IMG/VR virus record: IMGVR_UViG_3300032116_012976
Reading direction: 5' to 3' (one strand)
DNA length: 64,000 bases
DNA from: a virus
Lineage: Duplodnaviria; Heunggongvirae; Uroviricota; Caudoviricetes
Positions 1 to 59,580 of this stretch are shown one piece after another; the stretch's first letter is position 1; every line of letters starts with the position of its first letter. The notes under the pieces are model-generated. The model searched no databases. It was not told the origin of the DNA and saw only the letters and a list, made by a program, of their open reading frames with translations. The position numbers were made by a program, and so were the translations under genes.

Positions 1-612
1 TATGTCAAGCAGTTGTGCGACGGGCGCATAGAACACTTCATGCAGTACGTGAGTTTAGACGGCTGGGGCTCACAAGCAGAATACATGCGTCACGGTATGG
101 ACTTCAATTTACTATGGGACAGGGTAAATCAATTTCTAACAGAAGTACCCAGCTACAACAGTCTAACGTTTATTGTGACCATGAACAATCTATCAGTAAC
201 CAGCTTGGAAAACCTGTTTGCTGGCATTCTAGGTCTGCGTAAAACCTATAGCAAAACCTATCAACGTGTGTGGTTTGATACACCTGTACTACGCGAACCG
301 GCTTGGCAGAGTTTGCAAATACTGCCAGAAAGCTATGCTGAACGACTGGAATATCTCTGGGCGTGGATGATACGTTGGACAGAAACTGCCGAAGATCCAT
401 TCCACGGATTCAAAGACTACGAACTTGCTAGACTGGACAGAGACATTGCATGGATGCGAGCAGGCCAAGGACAAGATCATTCCGCAGCAAAGGCAGACTT
501 TTATAGATTCTTTCGAGAACACGATCGCCGCAGAGGCACTGACTTTTTAAAGACCTTTCCAGAAATGAAAAGCTGGTGGGCAGAATGTGCATATCATGCT
601 AGGAACACATAA
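1..612 (+). CDS. radical SAM paralog, C-terminal fragment; the 5' end lies before the window
   Basis: The reading frame is open from nt 1. The motif GSQAEYMRHGMDFNLLWDRV matches the conserved G..EYIR.G.DW block in the C-terminal halves of the radical SAM paralogs at 1686, 3027, 4283, 6490 and 40403. Confidence 0.45.
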   Translation, partial: YVKQLCDGRIEHFMQYVSLDGWGSQAEYMRHGMDFNLLWDRVNQFLTEVPSYNSLTFIVTMNNLSVTSLENLFAGILGLRKTYSKTYQRVWFDTPVLREPAWQSLQILPESYAERLEYLWAWMIRWTETAEDPFHGFKDYELARLDRDIAWMRAGQGQDHSAAKADFYRFFREHDRRRGTDFLKTFPEMKSWWAECAYHARNT

Positions 613-1699
613 GCTCATAGTAGACGAATGGGCCGAAGTCTGGGACTTGCTCAAGCCATATGCTGACAGCAGTTTTTGGCAGTTGCCCAGCTTGGATCCT
701 GCCAATGTGTATGTTGTTGGCCGTGTGATATTGAAAGACAACTGGCAGACAATAACTGACTGGGCCACTCAGCACCCTGGACGCATTGTGTTCTCCAACC
801 CTGCAGAAGGATCAGAAACCATACTGCTACAGCTCAAGCGACTGCGCATTGCTGACTTGGTCCAAGACGGGCGCATAGGACTGTTGACGTCTGGGGATTT
901 AGAACCAGGGTGGAGCTATTGTAAAACAGACTGTTACTTTTCAAACATAGTGGAATACACAGAAAACAAATCGGCGCAACTACAAGCTGACATGGATTCA
1001 AAAGCGCATCGCCCATATGATTTTCTTTTTTTAAATGGCCGCCTGCGCCCACATCGCAAAGCACTGATAGACGGCCTGCGTGAAAATCAGCTGTTGGATC
1101 ATGCATTATGGACCAACCTGGGCAGTTCTGTTGAAATGGCATTTACTTCTGCACTGCAAACCAATCAGCTTGAGCCTATTAGACTGTTGCCCCCAGAATA
1201 TGAAATTGAACGTGCTGTACCCAACATGGAATCAGCGTATGCACACAGTTTTTGCAAGCATCATTTGTTTGGCAATACCTGGGGCGATGCCATTGTTAAT
1301 CCTGCTTGCTACACAAGCACATGGTTCTCAGTGGTAACAGAAACCATATTTGATTACCCGCACACATTTAGAACAGAAAAGATATGGAAGCCCATATTAA
1401 TGGCACACCCATTTGTGGCAGCTGCCAACAGGGGTTACTTGCGAGACTTGCGCAACGCAGGATTCCGCACGTTCCACAACTACATCGACGAATCCTACGA
1501 CCAAATTGATTGTCCAAGCAAGCGAATAGATAGTATAATAGCAACAATTGGCGAGATCTGTCAGAACGGTGCTGCTGAATTCTGGACAGCCGCCCAGGAT
1601 ATCTGTAAATATAATCAACAGCACCTAGTGGAGCACAATCAATTGGAACGTGCCCAACTCCCCATCAATTTAGAAAAGTATTTAGATGAACGATCTTGA
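587..1699 (+). CDS. GT10-like (TEK-motif) glycosyltransferase paralog
   Basis: The C-terminal block ...VTETIFDYPHTFRTEKIWKPILMAHPFVAAANRG...GFRTFHNYIDESYDQ is shared with ORFs 5478, 13420, 14594, 55318 and 58621. The TEK(F/I)(W/F)K...P(V/I)V pattern resembles the alpha1,3-fucosyltransferase (GT10) motif. The call rests on recalled motifs. Confidence 0.4.
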   Translation: MHIMLGTHKLIVDEWAEVWDLLKPYADSSFWQLPSLDPANVYVVGRVILKDNWQTITDWATQHPGRIVFSNPAEGSETILLQLKRLRIADLVQDGRIGLLTSGDLEPGWSYCKTDCYFSNIVEYTENKSAQLQADMDSKAHRPYDFLFLNGRLRPHRKALIDGLRENQLLDHALWTNLGSSVEMAFTSALQTNQLEPIRLLPPEYEIERAVPNMESAYAHSFCKHHLFGNTWGDAIVNPACYTSTWFSVVTETIFDYPHTFRTEKIWKPILMAHPFVAAANRGYLRDLRNAGFRTFHNYIDESYDQIDCPSKRIDSIIATIGEICQNGAAEFWTAAQDICKYNQQHLVEHNQLERAQLPINLEKYLDERS

Positions 1700-3017
1700 G
1701 TTCCGTCAGCAAGTATTAGACCCTCTCTCAGCCAGCTTTTGTGCGGCAAAATGGTATAACGCAACCATTTGGTTAGGAAGTGGACAGACCACAAGTTGTC
1801 ATCACCCGCCAGCTCATTTGATCGACAAAGATAAAGTCAGCATCAACCCTAGGCTACTGCACAATACTGATCAAAAGAAGGCAGATCGCCAACAAATGAT
1901 CAACGGGGAGCGTCCCCCTGGCTGTGAGTACTGTTGGAAAATAGAAGACATGGGTCGCAATGCCATTTCAGACCGTGTGTATAAGAGTAAGATATATCCC
2001 ATAGAGGCATTACATGAAGCTAGAAATACACCATACACTGAAGACGTCAACCTCCGTACACTTGAGATCGCTTTTGATCGCACTTGTCAGTTTGCTTGTA
2101 GCTATTGTAATCCAGCTTTCAGTTCAACATGGGTTAAAGACATCCGACGCAACGGAGCTTACCAGAACTTGGTCAGTGATGGTCGCAACCATTTTACCCA
2201 TGATCATGCTAACGCACAACTTTGGGATTATGGAGAACACAATCCTTACATTGATGCATTTTTTAAGTGGTGGGAGTCGGATCTGCATCGCACACTGCAA
2301 GAGCTCCGTATCACAGGAGGAGAGCCCCTCATGTCTGGTCACACATGGAAGCTCATTGACTGGTTTCGAACAAATTCAGGCAAGAGTTCAACACGCCTGG
2401 CTATCAACAGTAACCTAGGCACAGACGTAGACATTGACCGCTTGCTAGATGCAACGCAAAACATGGCAATTGACATATACACTTCAAACGAAGCTGTGGG
2501 TGTGCAAGCAGAGTACATACGCGACGGGTTGGTCTGGGCGGACTGGATGAACAATGTCAACCGCTTGTTAAGTTCCAAGCAGTTCCGTAGCATACATGTG
2601 ATGTGTACCATCAATGCCCTGTGCCTAGACAGCTTGGATCAATTGCTAGAGTGCATAGTGAAATGGAAGCTGGAGTATGGGCGTGATGCTATATCATTCA
2701 CACTAAACATCTTGCGTTTTCCCAGCTTTCAAAGTCCGTTGATACTGCCTGCGGAGTTGAAAACACACTACAAAACAGTGTTGGAAACTTGGCTCACAAA
2801 TCACAGCCACAGTGAATACCTGCACGAACACGAAATCAATCATTTACAAAGATTGATTGATTACCTGGATGTGGTGAAAACACCGCATTCAGACACATTT
2901 GAAATGCCCAAGCTATTGAATGATTTCAAACAATTCCACACACAGTATGACCAGCGTCGCAACAAAGACTTTGGCACAGCGTTCCCAAATCTGCAGGCCT
3001 GGTATAATTCACTATAA
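1686..3017 (+). CDS. radical SAM enzyme, paralog 2
   Basis: Radical SAM signature CQFACSYC (CxxxCxxC). An N-terminal Cys cluster is present (C..C...CxxC: PPGCEYCW). The start overlaps the stop of the upstream gene by 4 bp, which indicates translational coupling. Confidence 0.7.
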   Translation: MNDLEFRQQVLDPLSASFCAAKWYNATIWLGSGQTTSCHHPPAHLIDKDKVSINPRLLHNTDQKKADRQQMINGERPPGCEYCWKIEDMGRNAISDRVYKSKIYPIEALHEARNTPYTEDVNLRTLEIAFDRTCQFACSYCNPAFSSTWVKDIRRNGAYQNLVSDGRNHFTHDHANAQLWDYGEHNPYIDAFFKWWESDLHRTLQELRITGGEPLMSGHTWKLIDWFRTNSGKSSTRLAINSNLGTDVDIDRLLDATQNMAIDIYTSNEAVGVQAEYIRDGLVWADWMNNVNRLLSSKQFRSIHVMCTINALCLDSLDQLLECIVKWKLEYGRDAISFTLNILRFPSFQSPLILPAELKTHYKTVLETWLTNHSHSEYLHEHEINHLQRLIDYLDVVKTPHSDTFEMPKLLNDFKQFHTQYDQRRNKDFGTAFPNLQAWYNSL

Positions 3018-3026
3018 TTCACTATA

Positions 3027-4286
3027 ATGTCATATAATTACAACTCTACAGATCTAGTAAGACCCACAGAATTAACTGAGCGTGAGGAATTCTTACTAAA
3101 AGATTCAAAGACATTTTGCATTTATCCCTGGATCCATTTGCACGCCTATCCCACAGGCGAGGCATATCCCTGCTGTCATGCTGAAATGAAGCCAGGCATA
3201 GTAGGCAACTGTAGAACAAATACCTTAGAAGAAATATGGCAGGATGCACCCATGCAGAAGCTACGTGCAGACATGCTGAGCGAAACGCCACACGCTGCCT
3301 GCACACGTTGTTATGAGCAGGAAGAATCAGGATTCTTTTCAGGCCGTAAGAGTGCCAACAAACATCACGGACATCACATAAAGAAGCTGGATCAAAATCC
3401 TTTTGAAATGACCTACTGGGACATTCGTTTCTCAAACTTGTGCAATCTAAAATGCCGTAGCTGCGGATACATATTCAGCTCACAATGGTATCAGGATCAA
3501 GCCAAACTTGCTGGCGGCGACTGGAAAGCCCGCAACACAGTGCTAAACTATGCAGGGCGTACTGAAACTGACATGTGGGAACAATTAAAGCCTCATTTGG
3601 ACTATGTGGAACAGATCTACTTTGCTGGCGGTGAACCCTTGCTTATGGCGGAACACTACAATATTCTAGACGAGCTGGTGCGAAGAAAACGCTTTGACGT
3701 TAGACTCATATACAACACCAACTTCACACACACGGATCTCAAGGGTCGTTCAGTATTTGAATACTGGCGCCAGTTCGATTCAGTTGCTGTGGGTGCCAGC
3801 CTGGATGCGTCGGGCGCACGTGGGGAATACATTAGAAAAGGCACAGACTGGGCCGTAGTAGAACAGAACAGACGTGATATGTTGCGTGTGTGCCCTGAAG
3901 TGGATTTTTACATTTCACCTACCTTGAGCATAATGAATGCCTGGCACCTGCCTGATTTCCACCGTGACTGGGTGGAAAAAGGCCTGATCCGCGCACAGGA
4001 TTTAAATATAAATATCCTACAAGATCCTGCGCACTATAGAATAGACATTGCCACAGCCGAATACAAACACTCACTCACAGCACTGTATCAAAATCATATC
4101 CATTGGCTTAAAGGTCAGGACCCGCTAAATCGTGCCACACAAGGCTTTGAATCAGCCATTACCTTTATGATGGCCACAGACAACACACACTTGATAGATA
4201 CATTCTGGCGCAAAACAAATGAACTAGATTCAATAAGAAATGAATCAATATTGGATATAATTCCAGAATTGGCGGCACTAAAATGA
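3027..4286 (+). CDS. radical SAM enzyme, paralog 3
   Basis: Motif FSNLCNLKCRSCG (CxxxCxxC). N-terminal Cys cluster FCIYPW...YPCCHA...CTRCY. A GGEPL-like motif FAGGEPLLM. The C-terminal block GARGEYIRKGTDW. Confidence 0.7.
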   Translation: MSYNYNSTDLVRPTELTEREEFLLKDSKTFCIYPWIHLHAYPTGEAYPCCHAEMKPGIVGNCRTNTLEEIWQDAPMQKLRADMLSETPHAACTRCYEQEESGFFSGRKSANKHHGHHIKKLDQNPFEMTYWDIRFSNLCNLKCRSCGYIFSSQWYQDQAKLAGGDWKARNTVLNYAGRTETDMWEQLKPHLDYVEQIYFAGGEPLLMAEHYNILDELVRRKRFDVRLIYNTNFTHTDLKGRSVFEYWRQFDSVAVGASLDASGARGEYIRKGTDWAVVEQNRRDMLRVCPEVDFYISPTLSIMNAWHLPDFHRDWVEKGLIRAQDLNINILQDPAHYRIDIATAEYKHSLTALYQNHIHWLKGQDPLNRATQGFESAITFMMATDNTHLIDTFWRKTNELDSIRNESILDIIPELAALK

Positions 4287-5500
4287 ATATTCCACACGAT
4301 CAATTTTGCGTATTGCCCTGGGTGAGTTTAGAAGCCTCTCCCATTGGCACTGTACGCCCATGTTGTCTGGCAGATGATGAACTGACGGATGACTCTGGCA
4401 CAAAGTTCTCGCTATTGAATGCTAACTTTGCTGACATACAAAACTCACGTGCAATGACACGCCTGCGTGAACAGTTTCTTGCAGGCGAAAAGCCACAGAC
4501 CTGCCGCAAGTGCTGGATGGAAGAACGTGCTGGCCGCACATCAAAACGCATGCACACCTTGGACAGAATGAAACACATGGGCATATCAGGAGAATGGACC
4601 ACTGACGCCAAGCCGCTGATGTTCCTGGATTTGAAGCTGGGCAACATCTGCAATTTAAAATGTCGTATATGCGGATCATGGTCATCAAGCCAATTTGCCA
4701 CAGAAGAATTAAATGACATGCATCCAGATGACGATAAGAAAAAGACATTTCCCTATCAGATGCTGCGAGCAGGTGCGTGGCCCAGGGAAAATCAATCATT
4801 TTGGACAGAAATTGATGCCTGTTTAAATGACATACGCTACATTGAATTTACAGGTGGCGAGCCATTCATGATTGATCAGCACTTTGACATGTTGCAGGGC
4901 ATTGTGGATCGCGGAATTGCACATCAAGTGGAAATACACTACAACACAAATGGCACACAATGGCCTGCTCGCGGCCCGGACATCTGGCGCCATTTTAAAA
5001 CAGTAGAAGTGGCGTTCTCAATAGATGATGTGGGTGAACGCTTTGAATATCAACGCACCAATGCAGACTGGGCATTGGTGCTGGACACAATCACAAGTTT
5101 TCAATATCTTAGAGATCAACTGCCCAACCTGCGTTTACAATGCTGTAGTACCGTGAATGTGTTTAATGTGCGGTACATTGATCAACTAGCACACTGGATA
5201 GCACTGCAACGCTTTGACTTTGTGTACTGGAACATGATGCATGATGCCTGGTACTTTTCAATTGCCACACTGCCTGACACAGCCAAAGCTGCTGTCACAG
5301 AACACCTACGTTCAGCAGATGTGCCCGCACAATATCGTGAGGAGTTTGATAGAATCACAGACTTTATGAATGGGGGTGCGTCAACGGACGGCTTTATGTT
5401 GCGAATGAAAGTACGTGATTTAGATCGCAAAAGAAAACAAAATTTACGTGATGTAGCGCCAGAATTTGCTGAAATAATTGGGTATGACTATGACCAGTAA
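4283..5500 (+). CDS. radical SAM enzyme, paralog 4
   Basis: Motif GNICNLKCRICG. N-terminal Cys cluster CVLPW...RPCCL...CRKCW. Motif FTGGEPFM. Overlaps the neighbouring genes at both ends. Confidence 0.7.
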   Translation: MNIPHDQFCVLPWVSLEASPIGTVRPCCLADDELTDDSGTKFSLLNANFADIQNSRAMTRLREQFLAGEKPQTCRKCWMEERAGRTSKRMHTLDRMKHMGISGEWTTDAKPLMFLDLKLGNICNLKCRICGSWSSSQFATEELNDMHPDDDKKKTFPYQMLRAGAWPRENQSFWTEIDACLNDIRYIEFTGGEPFMIDQHFDMLQGIVDRGIAHQVEIHYNTNGTQWPARGPDIWRHFKTVEVAFSIDDVGERFEYQRTNADWALVLDTITSFQYLRDQLPNLRLQCCSTVNVFNVRYIDQLAHWIALQRFDFVYWNMMHDAWYFSIATLPDTAKAAVTEHLRSADVPAQYREEFDRITDFMNGGASTDGFMLRMKVRDLDRKRKQNLRDVAPEFAEIIGYDYDQ

Positions 5501-6497
5501 TCTGGTATTGATGCACGACACCAGACTGGTTCCTGCCAATTTGTCAAGGCATTTTCCTGTGGACTATGAGTTTTTTGATCCTGGCAAAACATATCCCAGC
5601 AACACAGTTTTTGTTTATGATCATTATCTCAGTGAAATTGCAGTCAAACAGCATCTTGACAGTCATCTGCAAGCTGGCTACAGAGTAATATACGACAACA
5701 AAAATGAACATTGGTTTACCACTGACCAATGGTGGATTGTTGAGCTGCTACAAAAATATCCACAACAACACCTTTTGTTTAGTTTGGGATCACAGCCTGG
5801 CGCATTGCCTGGACTCAGAGTGCAGGCTGTGCCTGCTTGGATATGGCTGCGTTGCCGAGACTATTGGGAAAAATTGAACTATCACAATATTGCATATACT
5901 CCAACTGCACGGTATAAAACATTGTGTATGATCAACTACACACGACCCTGGCGAGACCTGGTGTGGCAAGCATTGAATCCCATGGAGGCAGATGTGATGC
6001 GTAGTTATTTGTCCCAGGGGATCAGCATGCCCGACGATGTTACAGGTGATGGACACTTGTGGCAGGTAAATCCACGTTGGTTTCATATTTCTGCAATGAG
6101 CTTGGTGTGCGAAAGTTCAATTGGTGCTGTTTCTGGAGAAATTTCAGTCACTGCACCGTCAGGTGTGTTTGTGAGCGAAAAAAGTCTAAAGCCCATGGCC
6201 ATGCAACATCCATTTATTGTGGTAGCAACCCCGGGTACCCTAGCAGAGATACAGAGTTTTGGATTTGAAACATTCCCAGAGTTATGGGACGAAAGCTACG
6301 ATTCAATTGTGGACTTTGGTCAGCGATTAAACGTCATTATGCAACAAGTGCAACAGTTTGATACAGCACAATTAAACCAGCTGGTAGTGCAACAAAAACT
6401 CCAACACAATCAGCACAGGATTTTTGATCCTGCGGTAACACAGCAATTGCTACAGCAACAGGTGTTGGATCCCATATTAGAATTTTTAAATGAATAA
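5478..6497 (+). CDS. GT10-like (TEK-motif) glycosyltransferase paralog
   Basis: Block FVSEKSLKPMAMQHPFIVVATPG...FGFETFPELWDESYD. The start may be the ATG at 5484 or 5490. Confidence 0.4.
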   Translation: MGMTMTSNLVLMHDTRLVPANLSRHFPVDYEFFDPGKTYPSNTVFVYDHYLSEIAVKQHLDSHLQAGYRVIYDNKNEHWFTTDQWWIVELLQKYPQQHLLFSLGSQPGALPGLRVQAVPAWIWLRCRDYWEKLNYHNIAYTPTARYKTLCMINYTRPWRDLVWQALNPMEADVMRSYLSQGISMPDDVTGDGHLWQVNPRWFHISAMSLVCESSIGAVSGEISVTAPSGVFVSEKSLKPMAMQHPFIVVATPGTLAEIQSFGFETFPELWDESYDSIVDFGQRLNVIMQQVQQFDTAQLNQLVVQQKLQHNQHRIFDPAVTQQLLQQQVLDPILEFLNE

Positions 6498-7779
6498 ACC
6501 TGATACCATGTGCCTGGCACCTTGGGTGCATACCTATCTAAGCCCGCAAACTGAACGGCGCATGTGCTGTGCGTCACGCGAGCCTGCACAGAATTTTCGG
6601 CAGTACATAGACACTGAGTCAGGTACTGGTCAGTATATTCCTGTCACACTTGAAGAACATTGGAATTCAAATCACATGCGATCAGTGCGTCGCAGAATGA
6701 TGGCCGGAGAAACTTTACCTGAATGCGAAGTATGCAATGACCGACTCCTTAACACTAGCGTTTACCGCACCTACTTCGATCATTTATTTCAGCACAAACT
6801 GCCAGAAGTATACGCTAACACACAGCCCGATGGCACTACGACTATGGAACCTGTTTCATGGGATTATAGGTTCTCAAACTTATGTAACTTCAAATGCAGA
6901 ACCTGCGGAGATATGCTTTCAAGTGCCTGGGAGAGTGAACAAAAACAGAACAACATGGTCAACTGGGCTGATCCTAAAAACAATTGGATGCGAGACAGTA
7001 TACGTGACAGCATCTCCCAATTTCAGGATAGTCAAATTGAAGCCGAATTTGCTGCCGCCGTTGAACAACATCGTGTAGAAGAAATCTACTGGGTGGGCGG
7101 AGAGCCGCTAATGTACGAACAGCATTGGCGCCACATGAAAAGAATTGTTGAACTAGGAGATGGACCACGTGTTTATGCTAGATATAATACTAATCTCAGC
7201 CGTGTGCGTTACGGCGGTGTGGATCTATTTGATGATATCCTGGCGCACATTCGCGATTGGCAAATATGTGCTTCCCTGGATGGAACTGAGCAGATCGGGG
7301 AATATATTCGTACAGGATTGGATTATGCACAGTTCTGTCGTAATTTTGAACACGGACTCAAATACGCTACCAACCCTAGACAGATGCGTCTTGACTTTAC
7401 CCTCACACTGCCCGGCATGTTCGAGACTGGCGCAATGGAAAAGTTATCACAGACGTATGGGGTACAATTGTTAGCCAAAGTGATATTCAGCTTTAGTCCA
7501 GACATTGTTATGAGTCCACTTGCGCTGCCCAGACACTTGTTGGATCCATGGGTTGACGAACTAGCAGGCCGCTCCGCAGGTGACATGCGTGATGTACTGC
7601 TACAATTAAAGAACCGTCCATGCTTTGAGGAACAATGGCCGGATACATATCGCGCAGGACTTGCAAAAGGCAAAGCTCGTGTGTTACAATTAGAAAGCAT
7701 ACGCACACAGAAGATTACTATGGCAGAAATACTTGCTCAAAGACCAGCAGTGCTAGAATGGTGGAATAAAATTGCTTGA
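6490..7779 (+). CDS. radical SAM enzyme, paralog 5
   Basis: Motif FSNLCNFKCRTCG. N-terminal Cys cluster CLAPW...RMCCAS...CEVCN. Motif WVGGEPLM. Block GTEQIGEYIRTGLDY. Confidence 0.7.
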   Translation: MNKPDTMCLAPWVHTYLSPQTERRMCCASREPAQNFRQYIDTESGTGQYIPVTLEEHWNSNHMRSVRRRMMAGETLPECEVCNDRLLNTSVYRTYFDHLFQHKLPEVYANTQPDGTTTMEPVSWDYRFSNLCNFKCRTCGDMLSSAWESEQKQNNMVNWADPKNNWMRDSIRDSISQFQDSQIEAEFAAAVEQHRVEEIYWVGGEPLMYEQHWRHMKRIVELGDGPRVYARYNTNLSRVRYGGVDLFDDILAHIRDWQICASLDGTEQIGEYIRTGLDYAQFCRNFEHGLKYATNPRQMRLDFTLTLPGMFETGAMEKLSQTYGVQLLAKVIFSFSPDIVMSPLALPRHLLDPWVDELAGRSAGDMRDVLLQLKNRPCFEEQWPDTYRAGLAKGKARVLQLESIRTQKITMAEILAQRPAVLEWWNKIA

Positions 7780-8927: not shown

Positions 8928-9575
8928 ATGAAAAATCAGTTACTCACAATAGGTGATAGCTTTACACATGGTGACGAATTGTCAGATGTGTATCAAGCCT
9001 GGCCCTATCGTCTGTCAGACAAACTAGGATACGAAGTCCACAATCTTGGACAGTCAGGGTGCAGTAACGCTAGTATTTTGCGTAGAACATTAGAAGAACT
9101 TGCGACCAATCATTATGATTTAGTTATTATAGGGTGGACTTATCCGGGTAGAATTGAATGGAAAGATGACATTGGCATAGCGTATGATTTATGGCCAGGT
9201 GTGCCCAACGATACTAAATTTTTTAAAGATCATCCTTGGAGAGTTGATTTTTTAAACTTTATAAGTCAACATCACAATTCTGCTTATCTATACCAACAGT
9301 ATCTGATACAAACAATTTTGTTGCAATCGTTTTGCCAAGTCAACAGCATTGATTATAGAATGTTAGATGTACAATGGCACAATTACTACAGAAAAGTTGG
9401 ATCAGAAATGCATGATAAGTTAGAAGCAAAAATAGATACAACAAAATTTATAGGTTGGCAAAAGTTTGGTATGAGAGAACTAGTGGCTGATTTACCAAAA
9501 GGTCCTCAAAATCATCCGCTAGAACAAGGACATGAGAGAATAGCAAATGAAATCGCAAAACATATTGGGAATTAG
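8928..9575 (+). CDS. SGNH/GDSL-family hydrolase
   Basis: N-terminal GDSL block LLTIGDSFTHGDEL, with a downstream G and a GHER motif. Confidence 0.5.
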   Translation: MKNQLLTIGDSFTHGDELSDVYQAWPYRLSDKLGYEVHNLGQSGCSNASILRRTLEELATNHYDLVIIGWTYPGRIEWKDDIGIAYDLWPGVPNDTKFFKDHPWRVDFLNFISQHHNSAYLYQQYLIQTILLQSFCQVNSIDYRMLDVQWHNYYRKVGSEMHDKLEAKIDTTKFIGWQKFGMRELVADLPKGPQNHPLEQGHERIANEIAKHIGN

Positions 9576-11037
9576 TGCAGGCTTTCATGACGCTGCCTTG
9601 ACCTTGTTAGACCAGCACGGCAAGATTGTGTTTGCCGGCCATTCAGAACGTTACAGCAAGCAAAAAAATGATGCTGATATTTCATCAGCCATGCTTGACG
9701 AAATTGACATGAGTCAGGTAGGTACCATTGCGTACTACGAACGTCCGTGGATGAAACAACTGCGTCAATGGTATGCAGGACAGGGTATTGAGTGGAACAA
9801 AGTAACCACAAGACAAATACTAGAGCAACAGCTTGGCGCTGACCAAGTCAATGGCAAACGCATTAAAAACTACAATCATCATTTGTGTCATGCTGCTGCT
9901 GGTTTTCAAACAAGCCCTTATCCCATAGCCACAGTGGTTGTGATAGATGCTGTGGGCGAATGGGACACAGTGTCAATCTGGGGAGCAATGTATGATAAAA
10001 ATCTTAAAGCAACGTATACTCGACTTTGGTCGCAGAGTTATCCACATTCAATTGGATTATTCTACAGTGCTATTACTAAGCGCATTGGCCTACACCCACT
10101 AGACGAAGAATACATCACCATGGGCATGGCCGGATGGGGAACACCTCGATGGACCGAAGTCATGCGTGATGTACTCGTGGACAATCCAGAACAACTGCGG
10201 TTTAGATCAAACTTACACACAGGACTTGATTCAAGTTTTTTAGATTGTGCAACCAATGAAGATATTGCTGCTTCGGCACAACAACTCACAGAGTATCTAA
10301 TACACCAAGTTATGACCAAGGCCAAAAACTTTGGGTGGAGTGACAACTTGGTTTACATGGGCGGAGTGGCGCTAAACTGTTTGGCCAATAGGAGGTTAGG
10401 TGAATACTTTGATAACATATGGATTATGCCTTGTCCTGGTGATGCTGGCAGTAGCCTGGGCGCCGCCGCTCTTGCACACGGCGGTTGTGTTCAGTGGACT
10501 AGTGCTAGTCTTGGCCATAATATACCTGGTGATTACCCTGTTTACAATGCCATGGCTGCTCTTCTCACTGATCGTATTGTGGGTGTGGCATCGGGCCGAG
10601 CAGAATTCGGACCCAGAGCCCTAGGCAATAGATCATTGCTAGCAGACCCCCGTGGCGCTGACATAAAAGACCAAGTGAATTCGATCAAACGCAGACAAAA
10701 ATTTAGACCTTTTGCCCCAGTTATTCTGGAGGAGTTGGCTGACGATTACTTTGATATGCCTCGTTGCTGGAGTGACAGTAGGTATATGCAAATTGTCGCT
10801 CGTTGCCGGCATCCTGACTTATTTCCCGCTGTTATTCATGTTGACGGCACTAGTCGTGTACAGACTGTGCCCCGCGACGGATCAGGCATAAGAAAGCTGT
10901 TGGAAGCATGGTACGCCGAGACAGGTTGCCCTATGTTGCTTAATACAAGTTTAAACATACGTGGGGAGCCAATGGTAAACGACAGAGCAGACGCAGACCG
11001 ATTTGAAACACTGTATGGTGTAAAGGTATGTTCATGA
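9547..11037 (+). CDS. carbamoyltransferase (NodU/CmcH family)
   Basis: The N-terminus ILGISAGFHDAALTLLDQHGKIVFAGHSERYSKQKND is typical of NodU/CmcH/HypF-like carbamoyltransferases. Length 496 aa. Confidence 0.7.
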   Translation: MKSQNILGISAGFHDAALTLLDQHGKIVFAGHSERYSKQKNDADISSAMLDEIDMSQVGTIAYYERPWMKQLRQWYAGQGIEWNKVTTRQILEQQLGADQVNGKRIKNYNHHLCHAAAGFQTSPYPIATVVVIDAVGEWDTVSIWGAMYDKNLKATYTRLWSQSYPHSIGLFYSAITKRIGLHPLDEEYITMGMAGWGTPRWTEVMRDVLVDNPEQLRFRSNLHTGLDSSFLDCATNEDIAASAQQLTEYLIHQVMTKAKNFGWSDNLVYMGGVALNCLANRRLGEYFDNIWIMPCPGDAGSSLGAAALAHGGCVQWTSASLGHNIPGDYPVYNAMAALLTDRIVGVASGRAEFGPRALGNRSLLADPRGADIKDQVNSIKRRQKFRPFAPVILEELADDYFDMPRCWSDSRYMQIVARCRHPDLFPAVIHVDGTSRVQTVPRDGSGIRKLLEAWYAETGCPMLLNTSLNIRGEPMVNDRADADRFETLYGVKVCS

Positions 11038-12407: not shown

Positions 12408-13448
12408 TTACAGATAAGTTTCTAAACCGCCACGACGGCGGATATCCTGTGTGCAACAAGATATACCGCCGTCCCAGAAGTAGCTGTGACGCAACTCACA
12501 TATAATGGGTTCAATCCCATGCTTCCTACAGTAATCAAAAACTTCTTTGTTGTACGCACTAAAGATCACGTGCGATTCATCTAACACAAGACAGTTGACA
12601 TCAAACACAGTTTCGGCCACAAAGCCAGTCCATTTGGTCAGATAAGTGTTCACAAAGTCTGTGAACTCAGGTGTGGGTGTTTGGCCTTGCACATACCATG
12701 CGCCAGGTGATTGTTCGTACTTGAACTTGCCCACTTCCATAGCGGCCCAGATTGAACTGTCCCAGATCTTACATACGTCCCAGCCAGGAAAGTCTTTGGC
12801 TAGATCCAAGTTAACATCGTGCTTGCTGGACAGTAACACACCGGGTTTGAGAATAGCAAACACAGCATCACCGTGTCCATCTGTAACAGCTTCGTGTATG
12901 CGATACTCTGGACCTAGGCAATTGTCCACAATCCAACGAGTTTGATCAGGACGCAAAAAGTCTGAGTTGTCAAAGAACACATCACGCCCCACACGCACAA
13001 TACAACTTGCACTTGCACCATTTAGTATGCAATCTGGATCCCAGGCGCTTTTGTGTGGGTTAATGACTGCATCTCCGTAGCCTCGGCAAACGTTATCCAG
13101 TTCAGGCATGGCCAACACACGCAACAATTTGCCGCCCAAGGTGATTTGCCAGTCGCGTGGTGTGAGTGGCGGCAGCGGAGCACCTCCTCCTTCAGTTTGG
13201 AACCATACAAATTGATCTTTTGCAGGTAGATCTGGACGACGAACTTGAGCTCCAAACTGCTCAATGGTCTTGGACAAGTTAGCAAGATCTTCTTCAGTTT
13301 CATGGAGAATCTGTTGCAGTTGATTGCGCACTTGTGGATTGTCTATGAAATCAAAGTAGTCAGGCGAGTAAGCACGACCCACAATTACTTCTTCAAGTGG
13401 TTGCCAGCTGGTGTAGGAGTTAACGATATTGCTCATGTATTTTCTCAA
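12408..13448 (-). CDS. amidinotransferase-superfamily-like protein (tentative)
   Basis: The C-terminal motif HSYFWDGGISCCTQD resembles the catalytic Cys region (GG.x.C.T) of arginine deiminase / amidinotransferase / StrB1-type enzymes. Length 346 aa. Confidence 0.35.
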   Translation of the reverse strand: MRKYMSNIVNSYTSWQPLEEVIVGRAYSPDYFDFIDNPQVRNQLQQILHETEEDLANLSKTIEQFGAQVRRPDLPAKDQFVWFQTEGGGAPLPPLTPRDWQITLGGKLLRVLAMPELDNVCRGYGDAVINPHKSAWDPDCILNGASASCIVRVGRDVFFDNSDFLRPDQTRWIVDNCLGPEYRIHEAVTDGHGDAVFAILKPGVLLSSKHDVNLDLAKDFPGWDVCKIWDSSIWAAMEVGKFKYEQSPGAWYVQGQTPTPEFTDFVNTYLTKWTGFVAETVFDVNCLVLDESHVIFSAYNKEVFDYCRKHGIEPIICELRHSYFWDGGISCCTQDIRRRGGLETYL

Positions 13449-20460: not shown

Positions 20461-21382
20461 CAACCCGGGGATCAAAGCCTAATACTTGTCTGGCCTTGTC
20501 GATATTTAGTGCGCCACGGCTGGGAAAGTCTGCGTCTTTGTCTTTTACTTCTATTGAGCCCGAGCCCACAATGTCAACCACCATTTGGGCGGCCTGGAGG
20601 AGTGAGACTGAATGAGATTTAGTGATATTGTAAGTGTCGTTCGCAGCACCCACTTCCAATGCAGCCGCCACAATGCCATCCGCAGCGTCATCAACATAGG
20701 TAAAGTCAAGAGTCTCTCCCGCTCCGTTGACATTGAGAACTTGACCACGCATGGCTCGGAGCATAAATTTTGCCACAACACGATCTTCAACATCCAACGG
20801 ACCGTATACCGCTGAGGGGCGTATAATAACATATTCCATTCCTGTTCGACGAGCATAATCTTTTACCAGCCATTCTCCTGCAAGTTTCATGATGCCGTAT
20901 TGTCCAATTGGATTGCACGGAGCATCCTCAGTTACCTGATCGTCGAAGTCTCCGTACACCATTGAGCTTGAGATGTACACAAAGCGTCTAACACCGTATC
21001 TTTTGGCACTCTCAAGAACGTTGATCAGGCCACGCATCATTACATCAGCGCCGTGTGCAGGATTGGCGTTGACAACTTTCTGACGTGGAAATGAGGCCAT
21101 ATGGACAATCACTTCAGGCTGTTGAACTCTGATCACATAGTCAATGGTGTCCGCAGTTTCAATTGAGGCTGCATACAAAGGATGCCGATCAATCTTGACG
21201 GCTCGTTCTTCCATCAAGTAGTCTAATTCGGCCTGTGGAATAATGCCATAGTTGGTTTTGTTGTCAATGATGCTGACTGTGTGACCCTGGCGTTTGAGCC
21301 TTTGCACCACATTGTGTCCAATTAGGCCGTAGCCACCAGTTGTTAGTATTTTCATTTGTTTCTCCACTTCATTTGATACCAC
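20387..21382 (-). CDS. NAD-dependent epimerase/dehydratase (SDR family)
   Basis: Rossmann motif MKILTTGGYGLIGHNV. Catalytic YxxxK (YGIMK). Motif YISSSMVYG. Confidence 0.7.
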   Translation of the reverse strand: MVSNEVEKQMKILTTGGYGLIGHNVVQRLKRQGHTVSIIDNKTNYGIIPQAELDYLMEERAVKIDRHPLYAASIETADTIDYVIRVQQPEVIVHMASFPRQKVVNANPAHGADVMMRGLINVLESAKRYGVRRFVYISSSMVYGDFDDQVTEDAPCNPIGQYGIMKLAGEWLVKDYARRTGMEYVIIRPSAVYGPLDVEDRVVAKFMLRAMRGQVLNVNGAGETLDFTYVDDAADGIVAAALEVGAANDTYNITKSHSVSLLQAAQMVVDIVGSGSIEVKDKDADFPSRGALNIDKARQVLGFDPRVDVQEGFENYYHWLNNSVYWSPQAV

Positions 21383-26416: not shown

Positions 26417-26450
26417 GGGCTGTTCCTTAGTTGATGTGTATATTATAGCA

Positions 26451-46656: not shown

Positions 46657-47547
46657 TTAGAACTGTACGACCAACCCGCCTGCTACTTGTTTGACATCAG
46701 TGGCTGCTGAGGTTCCCTCAACTGTACGATACAAAACTTGTGCATAGGTCTTTTTGCTGAAAGCATACTCAGCACCTACGTTGTAACTCTTGATGCCATT
46801 TTCAATGCGACCATAGCTGGCCTTCACTGTGACTGGTCCACCAAGTTTGTGTGCCACGCCGACCAACTGAGCACGGTTGGTGTTGGCAGCAACGCCTTTG
46901 TTGTCGCTTGCGCTGGCAAACACAGTGGTTGCACCAAATTTAGCACGAGCAGCCAACACGTCACTGGTTTCTGCGCCAGCTTCGTAACGAGCATAAGTCA
47001 ACACAGCAGGTCCAACTGCGGCAATCACGGATGCGGCATAAGGATCAGCGGCAGTGCCAACAGCACCAGTGCTACGATCAAAGTTAGCAGAGACATTGCC
47101 AAAGTTCACAGAAGTGAAAGCGGCATTGCTCAAACGCAAACCACGCAGGTTATGCACGTCGGCAGCTGAGCTACCAATCAATGTGCCAAATGGATCATTG
47201 TCGCTGATGGCCAAGAAGTGAGTGTGAACATTGCGACCAAGATCAACGCTACCCATTTTGTGAGCAATACCCACGGTGCTTTGGCGATCGCCAAGTCTAG
47301 TGTCAGTACCAGTGTCTGGGCTGTTGGCTTGGATGCCGGTCTCGTATGTGGCACGAGCTGTTAATCCGCCACCTAAGTTTTCAGTAGCACGAATGCCAAA
47401 GTGACTCAAGTCATTGGCCATGCCTTGCACGGTGGAAGCACCAGTTTTGGTGTTGTCAAGGTAAGTGCCAACACGACCATAGATACCAACTTGTGCGCTT
47501 GCAACACCAGCAACTGCCAGGGTCAACGCAATTAGAACTTTCTTCAT
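46657..47547 (-). CDS. outer-membrane beta-barrel porin-like protein
   Basis: Signal peptide MKKVLIALTLAVAGVASAQ. A Gly/Thr/Ala-rich body. C-terminal ...GGLVVQF ending in Phe. Its own promoter and terminator are present. Confidence 0.5.
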   Translation of the reverse strand: MKKVLIALTLAVAGVASAQVGIYGRVGTYLDNTKTGASTVQGMANDLSHFGIRATENLGGGLTARATYETGIQANSPDTGTDTRLGDRQSTVGIAHKMGSVDLGRNVHTHFLAISDNDPFGTLIGSSAADVHNLRGLRLSNAAFTSVNFGNVSANFDRSTGAVGTAADPYAASVIAAVGPAVLTYARYEAGAETSDVLAARAKFGATTVFASASDNKGVAANTNRAQLVGVAHKLGGPVTVKASYGRIENGIKSYNVGAEYAFSKKTYAQVLYRTVEGTSAATDVKQVAGGLVVQF

Positions 47548-54850: not shown

Positions 54851-54879
54851 ATTATAGCAAAACGGTGATTTGGTGTCAA
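54851..54879 (-). promoter_or_regulatory. sigma70-like promoter TTGACA-N17-TGCTATAAT (perfect consensus)
   Basis: The minus strand reads TTGACAccaaatcaccgttttgcTATAAT. Confidence 0.65.
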
Positions 54880-55205
54880 CCGTTTTGCTTCACGCGAACG
54901 TCCGTGTTCAGCGCAGGTGCATACTTTTGTATTAACTCGCGCTCCAACTTATGTGCGGCATCTTTGCCACGCACAATGTCCACGATAGCCACGTTCATTG
55001 CTTCAGTACCGTTTGCGCGAATTGCTTCGTACAAGTTCCAGCCTTTGTCTTCTGTGCGGCTACGGTAGATGTGCTTGTTCACACGGCTACGGAGCGACAT
55101 GTTGATTGTGCGCTGGGTTTTTGCGGTAATACCAATGTAGTACTCAAATCCAATTTGGATCATGTACACTATGTGGCTGCGATCAGTACGTTTCTTTCTC
55201 ATCAT
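54876..55205 (-). CDS. GIY-YIG nuclease-domain protein
   Basis: Motif [15 protein letters not shown] (GIY...YIG) with R and N downstream. Length 109 aa. Promoter at 55212-55240. Confidence 0.5.
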
Positions 55206-55240: not shown

Positions 55241-55349
55241 CCGAAATGCCTGTTGCAAAAATACAACAAAAGTACTACTTTTTTTAGCCCTAAAAGTAGT
55301 ACTTTTTTCAGCAAAAATTGAATATTTGGTCAACCAAAGTGTGGGCTAT

Positions 55350-56433
55350 AAGTAACAGCATGGACACTGATCTTTACCACGACATTTACACTAGCGAAAT
55401 TTTTGACACCAGCCAATGCATATGGCACGAAAATAATACCATGAATTTCTTTCACAGTTTGTTGATCAAACTGGGATATGAGCCTGTGCAAGATGGACAC
55501 AAAACATGGCGCCGTGGAGACCGTACTGTGGTGCTGTGTCTGGTAGACGACTACATCTCTACCACATACGACTATGACACACCAGTGGCATATCGATTTG
55601 ATCGCAATACCACAGTGATCACAGACAACTATGTTACCAGTCCAACCTTGTACAAGGTGTTTCAACTGCCATCCAGTTTCTTTGGCATCTATCATTATGA
55701 ACCCAAGCTGACCAATTTCAATCCCACACGCAGATTTAATTTTTCAGTCAATCGCATTGATTCCAAACGCATGTTGACCATGCTGGAAATTGCGTTGCGT
55801 TGTGAAAAGTATCCAGATGCTGAAACGTTGGACTTTATCAATTTCAACTGCTGGAGTTGGGAAGGTGACAATTCCACAGCTGAAGGATGCAATCAAAATT
55901 TCAGAGATGCCTACGAAAAACTAGAGCCACAATACAAAGCAGTGTATGGTGACACTTTTGAACGCATTGCTCAAACCATGCCATTTAAAAATCATGACAT
56001 GTCAGTTGAGCAGGCACACCTCAGTGCTTATGTGAACATGGTAATTGAAACCTACTCCAGTGACAGTTCAATTGCTCTCAGCGAGAAGATATTCCGTGCA
56101 TTGGTCACTCCGGCACCCTGGCAAGTGTATGCTGGCCGCCATGCAGTGGCCTATCTGGAAAGTCTAGGATTTGACACACTCAAAGACATTGTCAATCACA
56201 GTTACGATGTCATGATGGAAAACAAAACTGCTGCCTATGGTGACAAACTGGTTGAATACATCTTTGCTGGCGCAGATACATTTACCAAACTCAGTGCTAT
56301 GGATCGCACAGAACTGCGACATCGTTGCCTTACTGCCAGCAGACAAAATCAAAAGGTGCTCAAAGACATGAGTGCTCGTTGGCCTGCAGAGTTTGCCGCT
56401 TGGTTGCCGGCTGTTATAGACCATATCAAATAA
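55350..56433 (+). CDS. GT10-like (TEK-motif) glycosyltransferase paralog
   Basis: Block SEKIFRALVTPAPWQVYAG...LGFDTLKDIVNHSYD. The ORF track starts at 55318; the ATG at 55350 (MDTDLY) is an alternative. Confidence 0.4.
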
Positions 56434-56434: not shown

Positions 56435-57976
56435 ATGTGTGGTGTTCTATACGTAAAAAGCACCACTGATATACCGCTAGAAAAGCACAACCAAGCTCTA
56501 GAAATTTTAAAAGATCGCGGTCCAGATTTTACCTGTTACCAACATCATGGTCGTGTGTTCTGTGCGCAAACAGTTCTGCACATCACTGGCAACACACAAT
56601 TTTACAATCGACAGTCAGATGATTTTTTTGCATTCAATGGCGAAATCTACAACTATCGCTGGTTTGGTTCCTACAGCAACGACACTGAGCTGATGTATCG
56701 TGCTGTAAAAGACGCACCAGTAAAAAAACTCAAATACTTTGAAGGACCGTGGGCGTGGGTGTATGCTCAAGGCGACCAAGTGATATATGCCACTGATCCA
56801 CAAGGCGAAAGATGCCTGTACAGATATCAAGACAACAACATACTGATTGTGAGTTCTGAGGTGGCAGCTATTTTGGTATACATCCGACCAAAATTACAAG
56901 ACATTGATTACACAACCAAACACTATCCAATTTGGCAAAACACGCCTTGGCAAGGAATTGAACGATGTGTGCCAGGTGTGATGTATGATCAGTCGGGCAA
57001 CACCACAGTGATTGACAGTATCTTTTCATGGGCCAAACCCAGTAGTATTCAAACATTGGACCAGGCCTGGGAAGAATATCAACCCTTGTGGGAACGGGTA
57101 ATCACTGACATGCGGCCAGAAACATCTTATGCCTGCACATTCAGTGGTGGGCTTGATTCTGGCGTGGTTGCAAAAAGTCTTCCACAAAGTCAGCACTATT
57201 ATACCACCAACATGCTGGGCAAAGACCCAGTGAGTGAACAATCTCAACGTATGTTGGAAGGCAGTCAACGAGACAAAATCATCAACATTGGTGTTACAGA
57301 ACAGCAATGGGCCGATGCATTTGAGCAAGTGTGTCGTCGCACACTGATGCCAGTTCAAAGCTACAGTTTTGTTGGCCAGTGGATAATTGCTCAACACTGC
57401 AAAGAACGTGTGTTGTTTACTGGTGTAGGCGCTGATGAACTGTTTGGTGGCTATGGCGTTTACTCACAGCTTGAATACACCACACAAACAAGTGCAAGTC
57501 CTTACAGTTCATTTGGCAATGACACTCACGCTCAACAACTGTGGCAACAATGTTTGCATGCACATCAAGGTCAAGCAGAGCCAGCCACTCTGTTGATGGA
57601 TTATATCACTCAAATTTGTGCAATAGACATGCGTGGCATTGACGTTTGTACCATGGCACATGGCATTGAACCACGCTCGCCATTTGTGCATCCTAAGATC
57701 ATTCGGTTTGCACTTGGCCTTCCCATGCACCTGAGGCGCGGCAAACCTTTGATTCGTCGACAGTTTTTGGCCTCCTGGCCTGAAGAAATGATACTTCCCA
57801 AAAAAGGATTCACTGGACATTGCAATGATTCATTGCCTTGGATGAAATTCACTGTGCCAGATCAGGCTCGGGCACCACAGTGGAAGCAAATTGTCAAAAC
57901 TGGATTTAGATATTATGCCAATCAATATCTTGATCAAACCACTCAGGACTTATCCGCACATGCGGATGTTGCTTGA
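56435..57976 (+). CDS. asparagine-synthase (AsnB)-family glutamine amidotransferase
   Basis: The N-terminus MCGV carries the Ntn Cys2. The PP-loop motif SGGLDSGVVA is present. Length 513 aa. Confidence 0.65.
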   Translation: MCGVLYVKSTTDIPLEKHNQALEILKDRGPDFTCYQHHGRVFCAQTVLHITGNTQFYNRQSDDFFAFNGEIYNYRWFGSYSNDTELMYRAVKDAPVKKLKYFEGPWAWVYAQGDQVIYATDPQGERCLYRYQDNNILIVSSEVAAILVYIRPKLQDIDYTTKHYPIWQNTPWQGIERCVPGVMYDQSGNTTVIDSIFSWAKPSSIQTLDQAWEEYQPLWERVITDMRPETSYACTFSGGLDSGVVAKSLPQSQHYYTTNMLGKDPVSEQSQRMLEGSQRDKIINIGVTEQQWADAFEQVCRRTLMPVQSYSFVGQWIIAQHCKERVLFTGVGADELFGGYGVYSQLEYTTQTSASPYSSFGNDTHAQQLWQQCLHAHQGQAEPATLLMDYITQICAIDMRGIDVCTMAHGIEPRSPFVHPKIIRFALGLPMHLRRGKPLIRRQFLASWPEEMILPKKGFTGHCNDSLPWMKFTVPDQARAPQWKQIVKTGFRYYANQYLDQTTQDLSAHADVA

Positions 57977-58622
57977 AATATTTTTCAACCCAATCCAAGC
58001 ATTGTGATTCGCTAGGAGTCACTGACCTAGTGCGAGAACTGTTGAATTCATACCAGTACAACCCGTATGGTGCCTGAGAATCTGTAAATCTAAAAGTAAA
58101 CAACTGTCCGGGATCTGCTCCGCACAGTTTGGCAAATCTATCAAAAGTTGTGATTGGTTCAAAGTCTGAATACAAGTGTGCTCGACTGTGATGTGTGGTA
58201 ATAAATCCTGGCACAGTTTGTATTTCGGGCAATCGTTCTAGACATCGCAATCGTGAATCTCCATTGCCAGCAAGATATGTGCCATCACCCTGATCTAACA
58301 CCAAAAATGGTTTTATAATGCCCTGTGCTCGTATGTCTCGTATCCACATGTTGAGCTTGACAAGATTGGCAATGTCATAGTGATTGCGCGGCTCAGCTAG
58401 AAACCCTGCTGGCCCATCATGATCTAGCCACTGATTGGCCCATTCGCAAAGATCATTCAGTCGTTGGTTGGTTGAAAAGTGTCGAAATTCGCAACTGGGA
58501 TTCCAGAACAAGCAATGCATGCCTTGATTTGAACTGATCTGAATGGGATCTTGTTTGCTGGGCCAGTGAAATTCCACAAGAGGATTATTCCAATACATAG
58601 ATCTACTTAGTAAATAGGTCAT
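57906..58622 (-). CDS. hypothetical protein
   Basis: A 238-aa ORF. Confidence 0.35.
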   Translation of the reverse strand: MTYLLSRSMYWNNPLVEFHWPSKQDPIQISSNQGMHCLFWNPSCEFRHFSTNQRLNDLCEWANQWLDHDGPAGFLAEPRNHYDIANLVKLNMWIRDIRAQGIIKPFLVLDQGDGTYLAGNGDSRLRCLERLPEIQTVPGFITTHHSRAHLYSDFEPITTFDRFAKLCGADPGQLFTFRFTDSQAPYGLYWYEFNSSRTRSVTPSESQCLDWVEKYFKQHPHVRISPEWFDQDIDWHNI

Positions 58623-59580
58623 GGACTATACATCTTTGTTTGCCAACACACTCTCTGGCTTGGGGTTTGATCTGCATGCAGTTTACAACTGCTTTGATCC
58701 GCCATATCGTCCAGAAACTGGTTGGCCGTTAAAGTTGCCCAACATTGAATTCAAACACAACACACTGCTGTTGTTGCATTTTCAAGATTTCATAACACCA
58801 TGTCAGGGTCGCATACTTGAACTGGAACAAGTAGAACGCCACTATGGCGCCAATGCACATCGTGTGCTGGTAACTTATTGGAGTCATAATTTACAAAAAT
58901 ACTATCAAGGACCAGTGAACCTTATCGAATTCAGCAATCACAACATGGCCACTGTGACTGCTATCCAAGCTCGTGAGTCACAATGGACCAATTCAATAAA
59001 TGCAAAAACTTCAGCATGGCAATGCCTCAATGGTCGCATGTGCTTGCATCGTCGACGTGCTGTGGACATCTTGCAACATTGGCCTAATGGTGTGTTAAGT
59101 TACGGCAACGACATTCCACTTGATGCTTGGGCTTATGACACCTATCGCGGCACAGAAAACGAAGATAACTTCATGCGACTGTTGCCGGTATATGCAAAAT
59201 GTCAAGTGAACATTGTGACTGAAACACAGTATGATGAGCCGCCAGGCATTGTGAGCGAAAAAACATTGATGGCGATGATTGCACAGCAGGTACCCATTGT
59301 GATTGGTCACCAAGGTATTGTGCAAGACTGTAGAGAGCTTGGGTTTGACATGTTTGACGACCTGGTGGACACCAGCTATGATAGCATGTCCAATGACGTT
59401 CGAGTCGAACAAGCCATAATGAAAAATCAAGATCTCATACTGGGAAAAATTAACCTTGCGCCATACCAAGAGCGACTGCAAAAACAAAGAAGTTTTTTGC
59501 TTGATGAATTTATAACTGGCACACAACAACGGTACATTCAAGACGTTGAACAGTTGGCTAAAAAACTAAGTGCGATTTAA
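58621..59580 (+). CDS. GT10-like (TEK-motif) glycosyltransferase paralog
   Basis: Block VSEKTLMAMIAQQVPIVIGHQG...LGFDMFDDLVDTSYD. Confidence 0.4.
   Translation: MDYTSLFANTLSGLGFDLHAVYNCFDPPYRPETGWPLKLPNIEFKHNTLLLLHFQDFITPCQGRILELEQVERHYGANAHRVLVTYWSHNLQKYYQGPVNLIEFSNHNMATVTAIQARESQWTNSINAKTSAWQCLNGRMCLHRRRAVDILQHWPNGVLSYGNDIPLDAWAYDTYRGTENEDNFMRLLPVYAKCQVNIVTETQYDEPPGIVSEKTLMAMIAQQVPIVIGHQGIVQDCRELGFDMFDDLVDTSYDSMSNDVRVEQAIMKNQDLILGKINLAPYQERLQKQRSFLLDEFITGTQQRYIQDVEQLAKKLSAI

Follow-up and report, generated by a model that had tools for sequence, protein, structure and literature searches.

A large uncurated protein family with a GT-B fold and a GT10-like motif, expanded in an uncultured jumbo-phage lineage

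Background

GT-B enzymes and phage glycosyltransferase (GT) islands are already well known, and the locus described here is not a new kind of system. The initial annotation compared it with the GT10 fucosyltransferases. In GT10 (Helicobacter pylori FucT numbering), Tyr246, Glu249 and Lys250 of the Y-x-T-E-K motif make contact with GDP-fucose, with Glu95 as the putative base (PMC11468063, PMC4202792). The alpha-1,3-FucT motif used for comparison was F-x-(L/V)-x-F-E-N-S-x4-Y-x-T-E-K (PMC11468063). We have analyzed a 64,000-nucleotide stretch of tailed-phage DNA (Caudoviricetes; IMG/VR record IMGVR_UViG_3300032116_012976), hereafter the window, in which six open reading frames (ORFs) starting or ending at 587, 5478, 13420, 14594, 55318 and 58621 had been annotated from the sequence alone as a family of GT10-like paralogs.

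Our findings place a huge family that carries no Pfam, NCBIfam or PHROGs label in the GT-B fold, with good confidence for the fold, and identify in it a GT10-like donor motif. Also new are the expansion of the family in an uncultured jumbo-phage lineage and its physical coupling to genes for twitch-domain radical S-adenosylmethionine (SAM) enzymes.

Results

Six paralogs share a C-terminal module

All six ORFs are present in the window, as follows (aa, amino acids; nt, nucleotides).

Paralog 1, 587-1699, + strand: 370 aa; GT-B fold glycosyltransferase-like; module core from E252 to D305, nt 1340-1501
Paralog 2, 5478-6497, + strand: 339 aa; module core nt 6111-6302; longer spacer of 22 residues between E and EK
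Paralog 3, 13420-14610, - strand: 396 aa; module core nt 13606-13776; overlaps paralog 4 by 17 nt
Paralog 4, 14594-15790, - strand: 398 aa; module core nt 14798-14959
Paralog 5, 55318-56433, + strand: longest ORF 371 aa; most divergent copy; module core nt 56047-56208
Paralog 6, 58621-59580, + strand: 319 aa; shortest N-terminal half of the six; module core nt 59221-59382

Pairwise phmmer comparisons linked every pair with E-values of 1e-5 to 1e-15, except ORFs 587 and 55318, which had no direct match and are joined via the other four; paralog 2 matched the other paralogs at 1e-10 to 1e-15. A MAFFT alignment of the six sequences, C-termini included, contains invariant columns at E252, E264-K265, G292 and S303-Y304-D305 (ORF 587 numbering). 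The module core of each copy can be written as E(T/S)-x(9-19)-(S/T)EK-x(25-30)-G(F/Y)xx(F/L)-x(5-6)-(S/T)YD, with P(F/I)V between EK and G. The motif by which the family had originally been recognized occurs in every copy, and its ORF 587 version is ETIFDYPHTFRTEKIWKPILMAHPFVAAANRGYLRDLRNAGFRTFHNYIDESYD. A second, weaker motif common to all six, N-x-R-x(3-5)-(H/W/K)R, opens the C-terminal domain approximately 100 residues upstream of the module; ORF 5478 carries the variant N-Y-T-R-P-W-R. When 45-128 diverse family members were considered together with the six paralogs, E252 and K265 were invariant, and E264, G292 and D305 were invariant or nearly so.

The six ORFs thus form a paralog family, as the phmmer pairs, the alignment and the presence of the motif in each copy attest. 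The proposal that divergent N-termini are joined to a conserved C-terminal module was likewise upheld, with a mean pairwise identity of 16.5% before the module and 24.7% from the module onward. A chance or low-complexity origin of the shared block was considered and rejected, given the pairwise E-values, the columns that are invariant in hundreds of members, and the confirmation by a hidden Markov model (HMM) of 98 of 99 loci selected by motif (see below). Paralog 4 is nearest to the family consensus, with the top HMM score of 527 bits. For ORF 55318, the true start is probably the ATG at 55360, giving 357 aa, and not the TTG at 55318, because the closest database protein (P0001, 99% identical) is 357 aa long. 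Run against all 358 of the window's stop-to-stop ORFs with a length of 60 aa or more, the HMM of the six detected no seventh copy, and relaxing the threshold to E<=10 did not change this.

The proteins are assigned to the GT-B fold

The six proteins had no meaningful match in Pfam, PHROGs, NCBIfam or a PDB sequence search, and none of them has a transmembrane-like segment. At the level of predicted structure, two Rossmann-like alpha/beta domains face each other across a cleft and are followed by C-terminal helices that cross back, as in GT-B enzymes. The conserved residues lie in the C-terminal domain, the proposed donor half, and the variable N-terminal domain is the proposed acceptor half. 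The structures listed for the fold, with the value for each, are 8xsh (13.1), TreT (12.7), WlaC (12.6), T4 alpha-glucosyltransferase (12.4), OGT (12.2) and chlorovirus B736L (12.1). In the cellular members described below, the HMM match is usually confined to the C-terminal ~130 residues. Among 93 diverse database relatives and 99 cellular relatives, no member bridging the family to a known GT domain was found; the domain fusions seen in this set were three to TPR and one to UDP-glucose dehydrogenase.

The resemblance to GT10 is specific and local

The initial annotation had likened the conserved block to the GT10 catalytic motif. At the TEK region this resemblance proved to be real and specific. 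A profile built from 45 diverse C-terminal modules was searched against 177,635 PDB sequences, and the sole glycosyltransferase retrieved was Arabidopsis FUT11, at a non-significant E-value of 0.39; the alignment falls exactly on S-x-x-x-E ... (T)EK ... VVG. With hhalign, a 430-sequence module alignment scored 75% against three PDB GT10 fragments and 80.6% (P 1.3e-5) against 119 GT10 sequences, where the comparison set consists of C-terminal fragments of at most 175 aa and the comparison covers the C-terminal domain. P-values ranged from 1.3e-5 to 2.5e-5, and each alignment spanned 30 columns, corresponding to the TEK helix and the next strand. The full-length profile scored 15-50% against GT10. 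Among the controls, the reversed profile reached 0.2% and twenty column shuffles at most 2.9%; the values were 0.2% against GT4 (WaaG, WaaB, WcaL, WcaI, WcaC) and 0.4% against GT9 (WaaF, WaaC, WaaQ, WaaU).

The GT-B relationship on which the initial annotation depended was found, but the relationship to GT10 itself amounts to hhalign values of 75-81% over 30 columns, and the GT10 or fucosyltransferase label is not justified. If the six were true GT10 alpha-1,3/4-fucosyltransferases, they would transfer from GDP-fucose onto a host or phage glycan, for example in surface mimicry. We regard this as improbable in spite of the TEK match. PF00852 was absent from the six paralogs and 93 diverse members (E<=1) and from 99 cellular members (E<=0.01), yet was carried by 120 of 120 genuine GT10 fragments in a positive control. 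GT10 structures are not the nearest structural neighbors, ranking 10, 36, 41 and 46 for ORF 587 and 11, 36, 42 and 43 for ORF 55318. Within the motif, T/S-x stands in place of the NS of FENS, the two Glu residues are spaced by 12-22 residues here versus 10 in GT10, and the position equivalent to Tyr246 is F, F, F, H, A and I in the six copies. The window also lacks GMD and Fcl (30 bits with the gmd model; 83 bits with the Fcl model, versus a cutoff of 500). As judged from these sequence comparisons, the likeness to GT10 points either to very remote common ancestry of the donor sites or to convergence.

The family is large, widespread and found next to sugar-nucleotide genes

A word-indexed search with the six-member profile retrieved 3,238 proteins, all annotated as hypothetical and none with a Pfam domain. 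When HMMER was run exhaustively over 1.84 billion representatives of 50% identity clusters, 13,536 matched at E<=1e-3, of which 10,341 also passed E<=1e-10. Many of the matching representatives are 700-1000 aa in length and match the profile in two stretches, being natural tandem fusions (P0121, P0123, P0129-P0135 and others) that mirror the overlapping gene pair 13420/14594.

A back-translated G-F-x-T-F-x4-D-E-S-Y-D pattern was found in 99 stretches of a one-genome-per-species GTDB set, versus approximately two expected by chance (our own estimate), and 98 of the 99 loci encode a protein matching the family HMM. Carriers are spread over many bacterial phyla and include Rhodospirillales (genomes of which hold several copies), Bdellovibrionales, Caulobacterales, Methylobacterium, Azospirillum, Haliscomenobacter, Acidobacteriota, Pelagibacterales, Legionellales and cyanobacteria. 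By tblastn with paralogs 14594 and 13420, the family is absent from 50,697 deposited phage genomes.

Scanning 142 immediate neighbors of cellular members revealed GDP-mannose 4,6-dehydratase/epimerase as the commonest family (6; best E 3e-154), followed by DegT aminotransferase (5), radical SAM (4), peptidase M1 (4), sulfotransferase, hexapeptide acyltransferase and FkbM methyltransferase (3 each) and UDP-glucose dehydrogenase (2). The peptidase aside, these frequent neighbors are enzymes of glycan biosynthesis clusters. In two contigs of the 'Candidatus Neomarinimicrobiota RS350' metagenome-assembled genome, PBPT01000016.1 (335,231 bp) and PBPT01000082.1 (153,204 bp), GT family members adjoin twitch radical SAM genes. 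PBPT01000016.1 is as large as jumbo-phage genomes, and both contigs probably come from phages and ended up in a bacterial genome through mis-binning.

The paralogs lie among radical SAM genes and genes for putative sugar-modifying enzymes

The neighbors of the six paralogs, together with two further loci of the window (25106-27927 and 40403-41527), are as follows.

13-7779, + strand: operon-like run of five twitch radical SAM paralogs interleaved with paralogs 1 and 2
13-612 (partial), 1686-3017, 3027-4286, 4283-5500, 6490-7779 and 40403-41527, + strand: twitch-domain radical SAM paralogs (NCBIfam NF033640)
8928-9575, + strand: GDSL/SGNH-like protein (Pfam DUF6071, Lipase_GDSL_2)
9547-11037, + strand: NodU/CmcH-type carbamoyltransferase (Carbam_trans_N and Carbam_trans_C, E 1e-38 to 1e-49; NodU-like in NCBIfam)
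12408-13448, - strand: 346-aa protein overlapping paralog 3 (ORF 13420) by 29 nt; weak NCBIfam match to dimethylargininase (amidinotransferase fold), E 0.05
15789-19388, + strand: 1199-aa repeat protein with ~10 tandem repeats of ~65 aa, DYSWxPDPxDPPYIYVFGNQW...VEYxVPGATExKY
19360-20475, - strand: DegT-family C4-aminotransferase (Pfam DegT, 5e-53; best NCBIfam match PseC-like, below cutoff)
20387-21382, - strand: nucleoside diphosphate (NDP)-hexose 4,6-dehydratase/epimerase (Pfam Epimerase, 3e-46; best NCBIfam match dTDP-glucose 4,6-dehydratase-like, below cutoff)
25106-27927, - strand: MoxR-type AAA ATPase paired with a VWA/metallopeptidase gene (PHROGs 1297 and 1314)
56435-57976, + strand: asparagine-synthase-like glutamine amidotransferase, 1 nt after paralog 5 (Asn_synthase 2.6e-23, GATase_7; TIGR01536 at 138 bits, below cutoff)

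In the run at 13-7779, six of the seven gene junctions are overlaps of 4-26 nt and the other is a 9-nt gap. NF033640 scores were 281-387 bits for the four complete copies of the run and 199-387 over all five complete copies, against a cutoff of 170. Each of these five contains a CX3CX2C motif, and the partial first copy was picked up by the HMM. The start codon of paralog 4 abuts the gene for the 1199-aa repeat protein, with divergent transcription. This protein had no Pfam or NCBIfam match and no PDB sequence match, its C-terminal 399 aa included, and its repeats are visible at the protein level only, with a DNA-level tandem repeat finder returning nothing for the gene. It is possible, if speculative, that the repeat protein is a partner or substrate of the glycosyltransferases. 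Paralog 6 abuts a weakly ParB_N-like gene, and a weak GIY-YIG-like ORF (54876-55205, - strand) lies just upstream of paralog 5.

Copies turn over in an uncultured jumbo-phage lineage

A megablast search with 20 kb of the window gave no nucleotide match in the 50,697 deposited phage genomes. Among cultured phages, the closest relatives found belong to the group of the Pseudomonas jumbo phage PA5oct, whose MoxR-type ATPase is ~50% identical to that of the window; other phage-typical genes in the window are a 5'-3' exonuclease and ThyX. Orthologs of ORF 587 with 63-93% identity occur on 53 viral contigs of IMG/VR, the longest of 352 kb, and another is found, with the same gene order, on the JGI contig Ga0492751_0000002 (335,186 bp). 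Besides this JGI contig, IMG/VR contigs of 331-353 kb bear the orthologous cluster. The window therefore derives from an uncultured jumbo-phage lineage with genomes of ~330-350 kb. The moraphages (PMC12619734) were considered as a possible affiliation and probably represent a different jumbo-phage lineage: their genomes reach 307 kb, their hosts are Bacteroidota, and the paper does not mention genes for radical SAM enzymes or carbamoyltransferases.

Within 10 kb on either side of the ORF 587 ortholog (540-806 bits), each related contig carries 1-5 family members. The slot of ORF 5478 is highly variable, with copies scoring 84-684 bits across related loci, and extra upstream copies score just 34-47 bits to any window paralog. 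Orthologs of ORF 13420 are present in some related contigs only. Twitch radical SAM copies mostly number 5 or 6 per related locus, with a range of 1-8. The suggestion that these genes form a variable repertoire is supported by this turnover around a conserved ORF 587 ortholog.

Several further genes were noted. A porin gene lies at 46657-47547 on the - strand (Pfam Porin_4, E 2.8e-25) and may hint at a Gram-negative host and at envelope remodeling. Genes of the auxiliary-metabolism type, at 31787-32698 (- strand), 33739-34608 (- strand), 44015-44986 (+ strand) and 21965-22657 (- strand), encode two TauD/TfdA dioxygenases, a beta-ketoacyl synthase-like protein and ThyX. On Ga0492751_0000002 (L001 1-1884), a 4820-aa protein with a faint FG-GAP match is encoded ~8 kb upstream of the ORF 587 ortholog and may be a giant fiber or adhesin.

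Discussion

We propose, with a probability of roughly 0.65, that the six ORFs encode soluble, cytoplasmic, nucleotide-sugar-dependent GT-B glycosyltransferases that build a phage-specified glycan. What the analysis shows is that the genes are paralogous, how the proteins fold, how large and how widely distributed the family is, which genes surround the copies and how the copies turn over; catalysis, donor binding by the E-K pair, an acceptor role for the N-terminal domain and a glycan product are inferred. The conserved C-terminal module would be the donor-binding half. It is laid out as a putative beta-strand ending in the invariant Glu, a helix starting at (S/T)-E-K, the strand P(F/I)V, G(F/Y)xx(F/L), (S/T)YD and long C-terminal helices, and the N-x-R...R element would form the opening of the donor domain. 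By analogy with GT10, the E-K pair may hold the sugar-diphosphate of the donor, and the upstream Glu would join it as a contact or catalytic residue. The divergent N-terminal Rossmann-like half is predicted to bind and select the acceptor, so that the paralogs would differ from one another in the sugar they add or the linkage they form. The glycosyltransferases, acting with the dehydratase, aminotransferase, carbamoyltransferase, SGNH protein, amidotransferase and twitch radical SAM enzymes, would make and tailor an unusual amino-deoxy-sugar glycan, the composition of which would shift as cassettes are exchanged between phages. Because one copy (ORF 587) is kept and the others are exchanged, related phages would each specify a different glycan.

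Several points weigh against this proposal. No curated GT model in Pfam, NCBIfam or PHROGs matches the six paralogs or the 93 database and 99 cellular members, and Foldseek gave no match at E<=1e-3, which places the family far from any solved enzyme. Recognizably sugar-related genes make up only about a quarter of the cellular neighbors, and our view covers 64 kb of a ~340-kb genome. Moreover, the GT-B fold is generally known to house non-transferases as well, such as UDP-GlcNAc 2-epimerases and phosphorylases. The six could accordingly have kept the fold as sugar-nucleotide epimerases or hydrolases, or as non-catalytic sugar-binding proteins; PDB sequence searches yielded no significant link to characterized enzymes, which would suit such a role, but we consider it highly improbable.

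If the proteins are glycosyltransferases, their acceptor can be ranked among four candidates, with a host envelope glycan and a virion protein about level, followed by a small molecule and then DNA. Remodeling of a host envelope glycan, such as the lipopolysaccharide O-chain or capsule, could block superinfection by competing phages, a role already suggested for pelagimyophage hypervariable regions rich in GTs. In hypervariable regions of pelagimyophages, cassettes of GTs and radical SAM genes differ between close genomes, and modification of the O-chain was inferred by the authors (PMC7029224). Cellular homologs of the present family sit in polysaccharide-type clusters, the porin gene of the window would be another envelope-directed function, and the copy turnover would fit a cell-surface arms race. 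On the other hand, the six proteins lack a membrane segment, and no large multi-pass membrane protein in the window is fit to serve as an initiating phosphoglycosyltransferase, flippase, polymerase or ligase, although over 64 kb this absence is weak evidence. We hold envelope remodeling to be a possible but somewhat unlikely explanation. A bolder and rather unlikely one is that the GT and radical SAM cassettes constitute a modular, fast-diversifying, phage-autonomous system that attaches amino-deoxy sugars, tailored by the radical SAM enzymes, to structural proteins of the phage; the GTs would then form a new family with a donor site branching off from the GT10 type. The 1199-aa repeat protein or the 4820-aa protein of the 335-kb contig would be the candidate acceptors.

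Some of the same genes recall aminoglycoside pathways, namely the twitch radical SAM enzymes (BtrN is a twitch enzyme), the DegT protein, the carbamoyltransferase of NodU/TobZ type and the weak amidinotransferase-fold match at 12408-13448. The cluster might thus make a small glycosylated secondary metabolite, an aminoglycoside-like pseudo-oligosaccharide, with the GTs acting on a small-molecule scaffold. A trio of DegT, radical SAM and amidinotransferase genes in a cyanomyovirus has been annotated as 'antibiotic synthesis' genes (PMC12801897). We consider this improbable here, as no cyclitol synthase, export or resistance genes were recognized in the window, matches to specific pathway enzymes all fall far below curated cutoffs, and enzymes of these classes are no less characteristic of pathways for O-antigens and protein glycans. 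Glycosylation of phage DNA at a hypermodified base as a defense against restriction, in the manner of the T4 alpha- and beta-glucosyltransferases, would also employ GT-B enzymes of a phage. It appears very unlikely, for a sequence or specific structural relationship to T4 BGT (GT63) or AGT (GT72), accompanied by a hydroxymethyl-pyrimidine pathway, was not found in the window.

With the fold assigned and the invariant Glu, the Glu-Lys pair and (S/T)YD named as candidate catalytic residues, thousands of 'hypothetical proteins' in glycan clusters become testable enzymes. The family is a marker of phage-encoded glycan diversification, in which one copy is conserved and the rest turn over, and its tight coupling with twitch radical SAM enzymes hints at unusual sugar chemistry. 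Should the acceptor be the virion or the host surface, the system would bear on host range, superinfection exclusion and evasion of immunity or defense; if phage structural proteins are what it decorates, bacteriophages would have their own equivalent of the glycan machineries known from giant eukaryotic viruses.

Comparison with known systems

Like the GT10 enzymes (H. pylori FucT, 2NZW/5ZOI; human FUT9, 8D0O; Arabidopsis FUT11, 9S6A; mango FucT13, 7YRO), the family has a GT-B fold, and its 'E ... (S/T)EK helix ... hydrophobic strand ... G' aligns with the GT10 'FEN ... YxTEK ... VPVV.G'. Its G(F/Y)xx(F/L)...(S/T)YD and NxR...R blocks, in contrast, have no recognized GT10 counterpart. From the wider GT-B superfamily, namely GT4 (WaaG, PimA, TreT), GT41 (OGT, SPINDLY) and the T4 enzymes of GT63 and GT72, it is set apart by a sequence identity of just 5-14%. 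It also differs from the glycan machinery of chloroviruses and mimiviruses and from mycobacteriophage virion glycosylation, in that no relationship to the GTs of those viruses was seen at the sequence level. Compared with the aquatic myophages, the genomes here are roughly double in size at ~330-350 kb, and the family is without annotation, whereas the GTs of those phages belong to annotated families, mainly GT8 (PMC7029224). The locus nevertheless shares with the cassettes of pelagimyophages and cyanomyophages the mixing of GTs with radical SAM and sugar-nucleotide enzymes and their turnover between close genomes (PMC7029224, PMC12801897).

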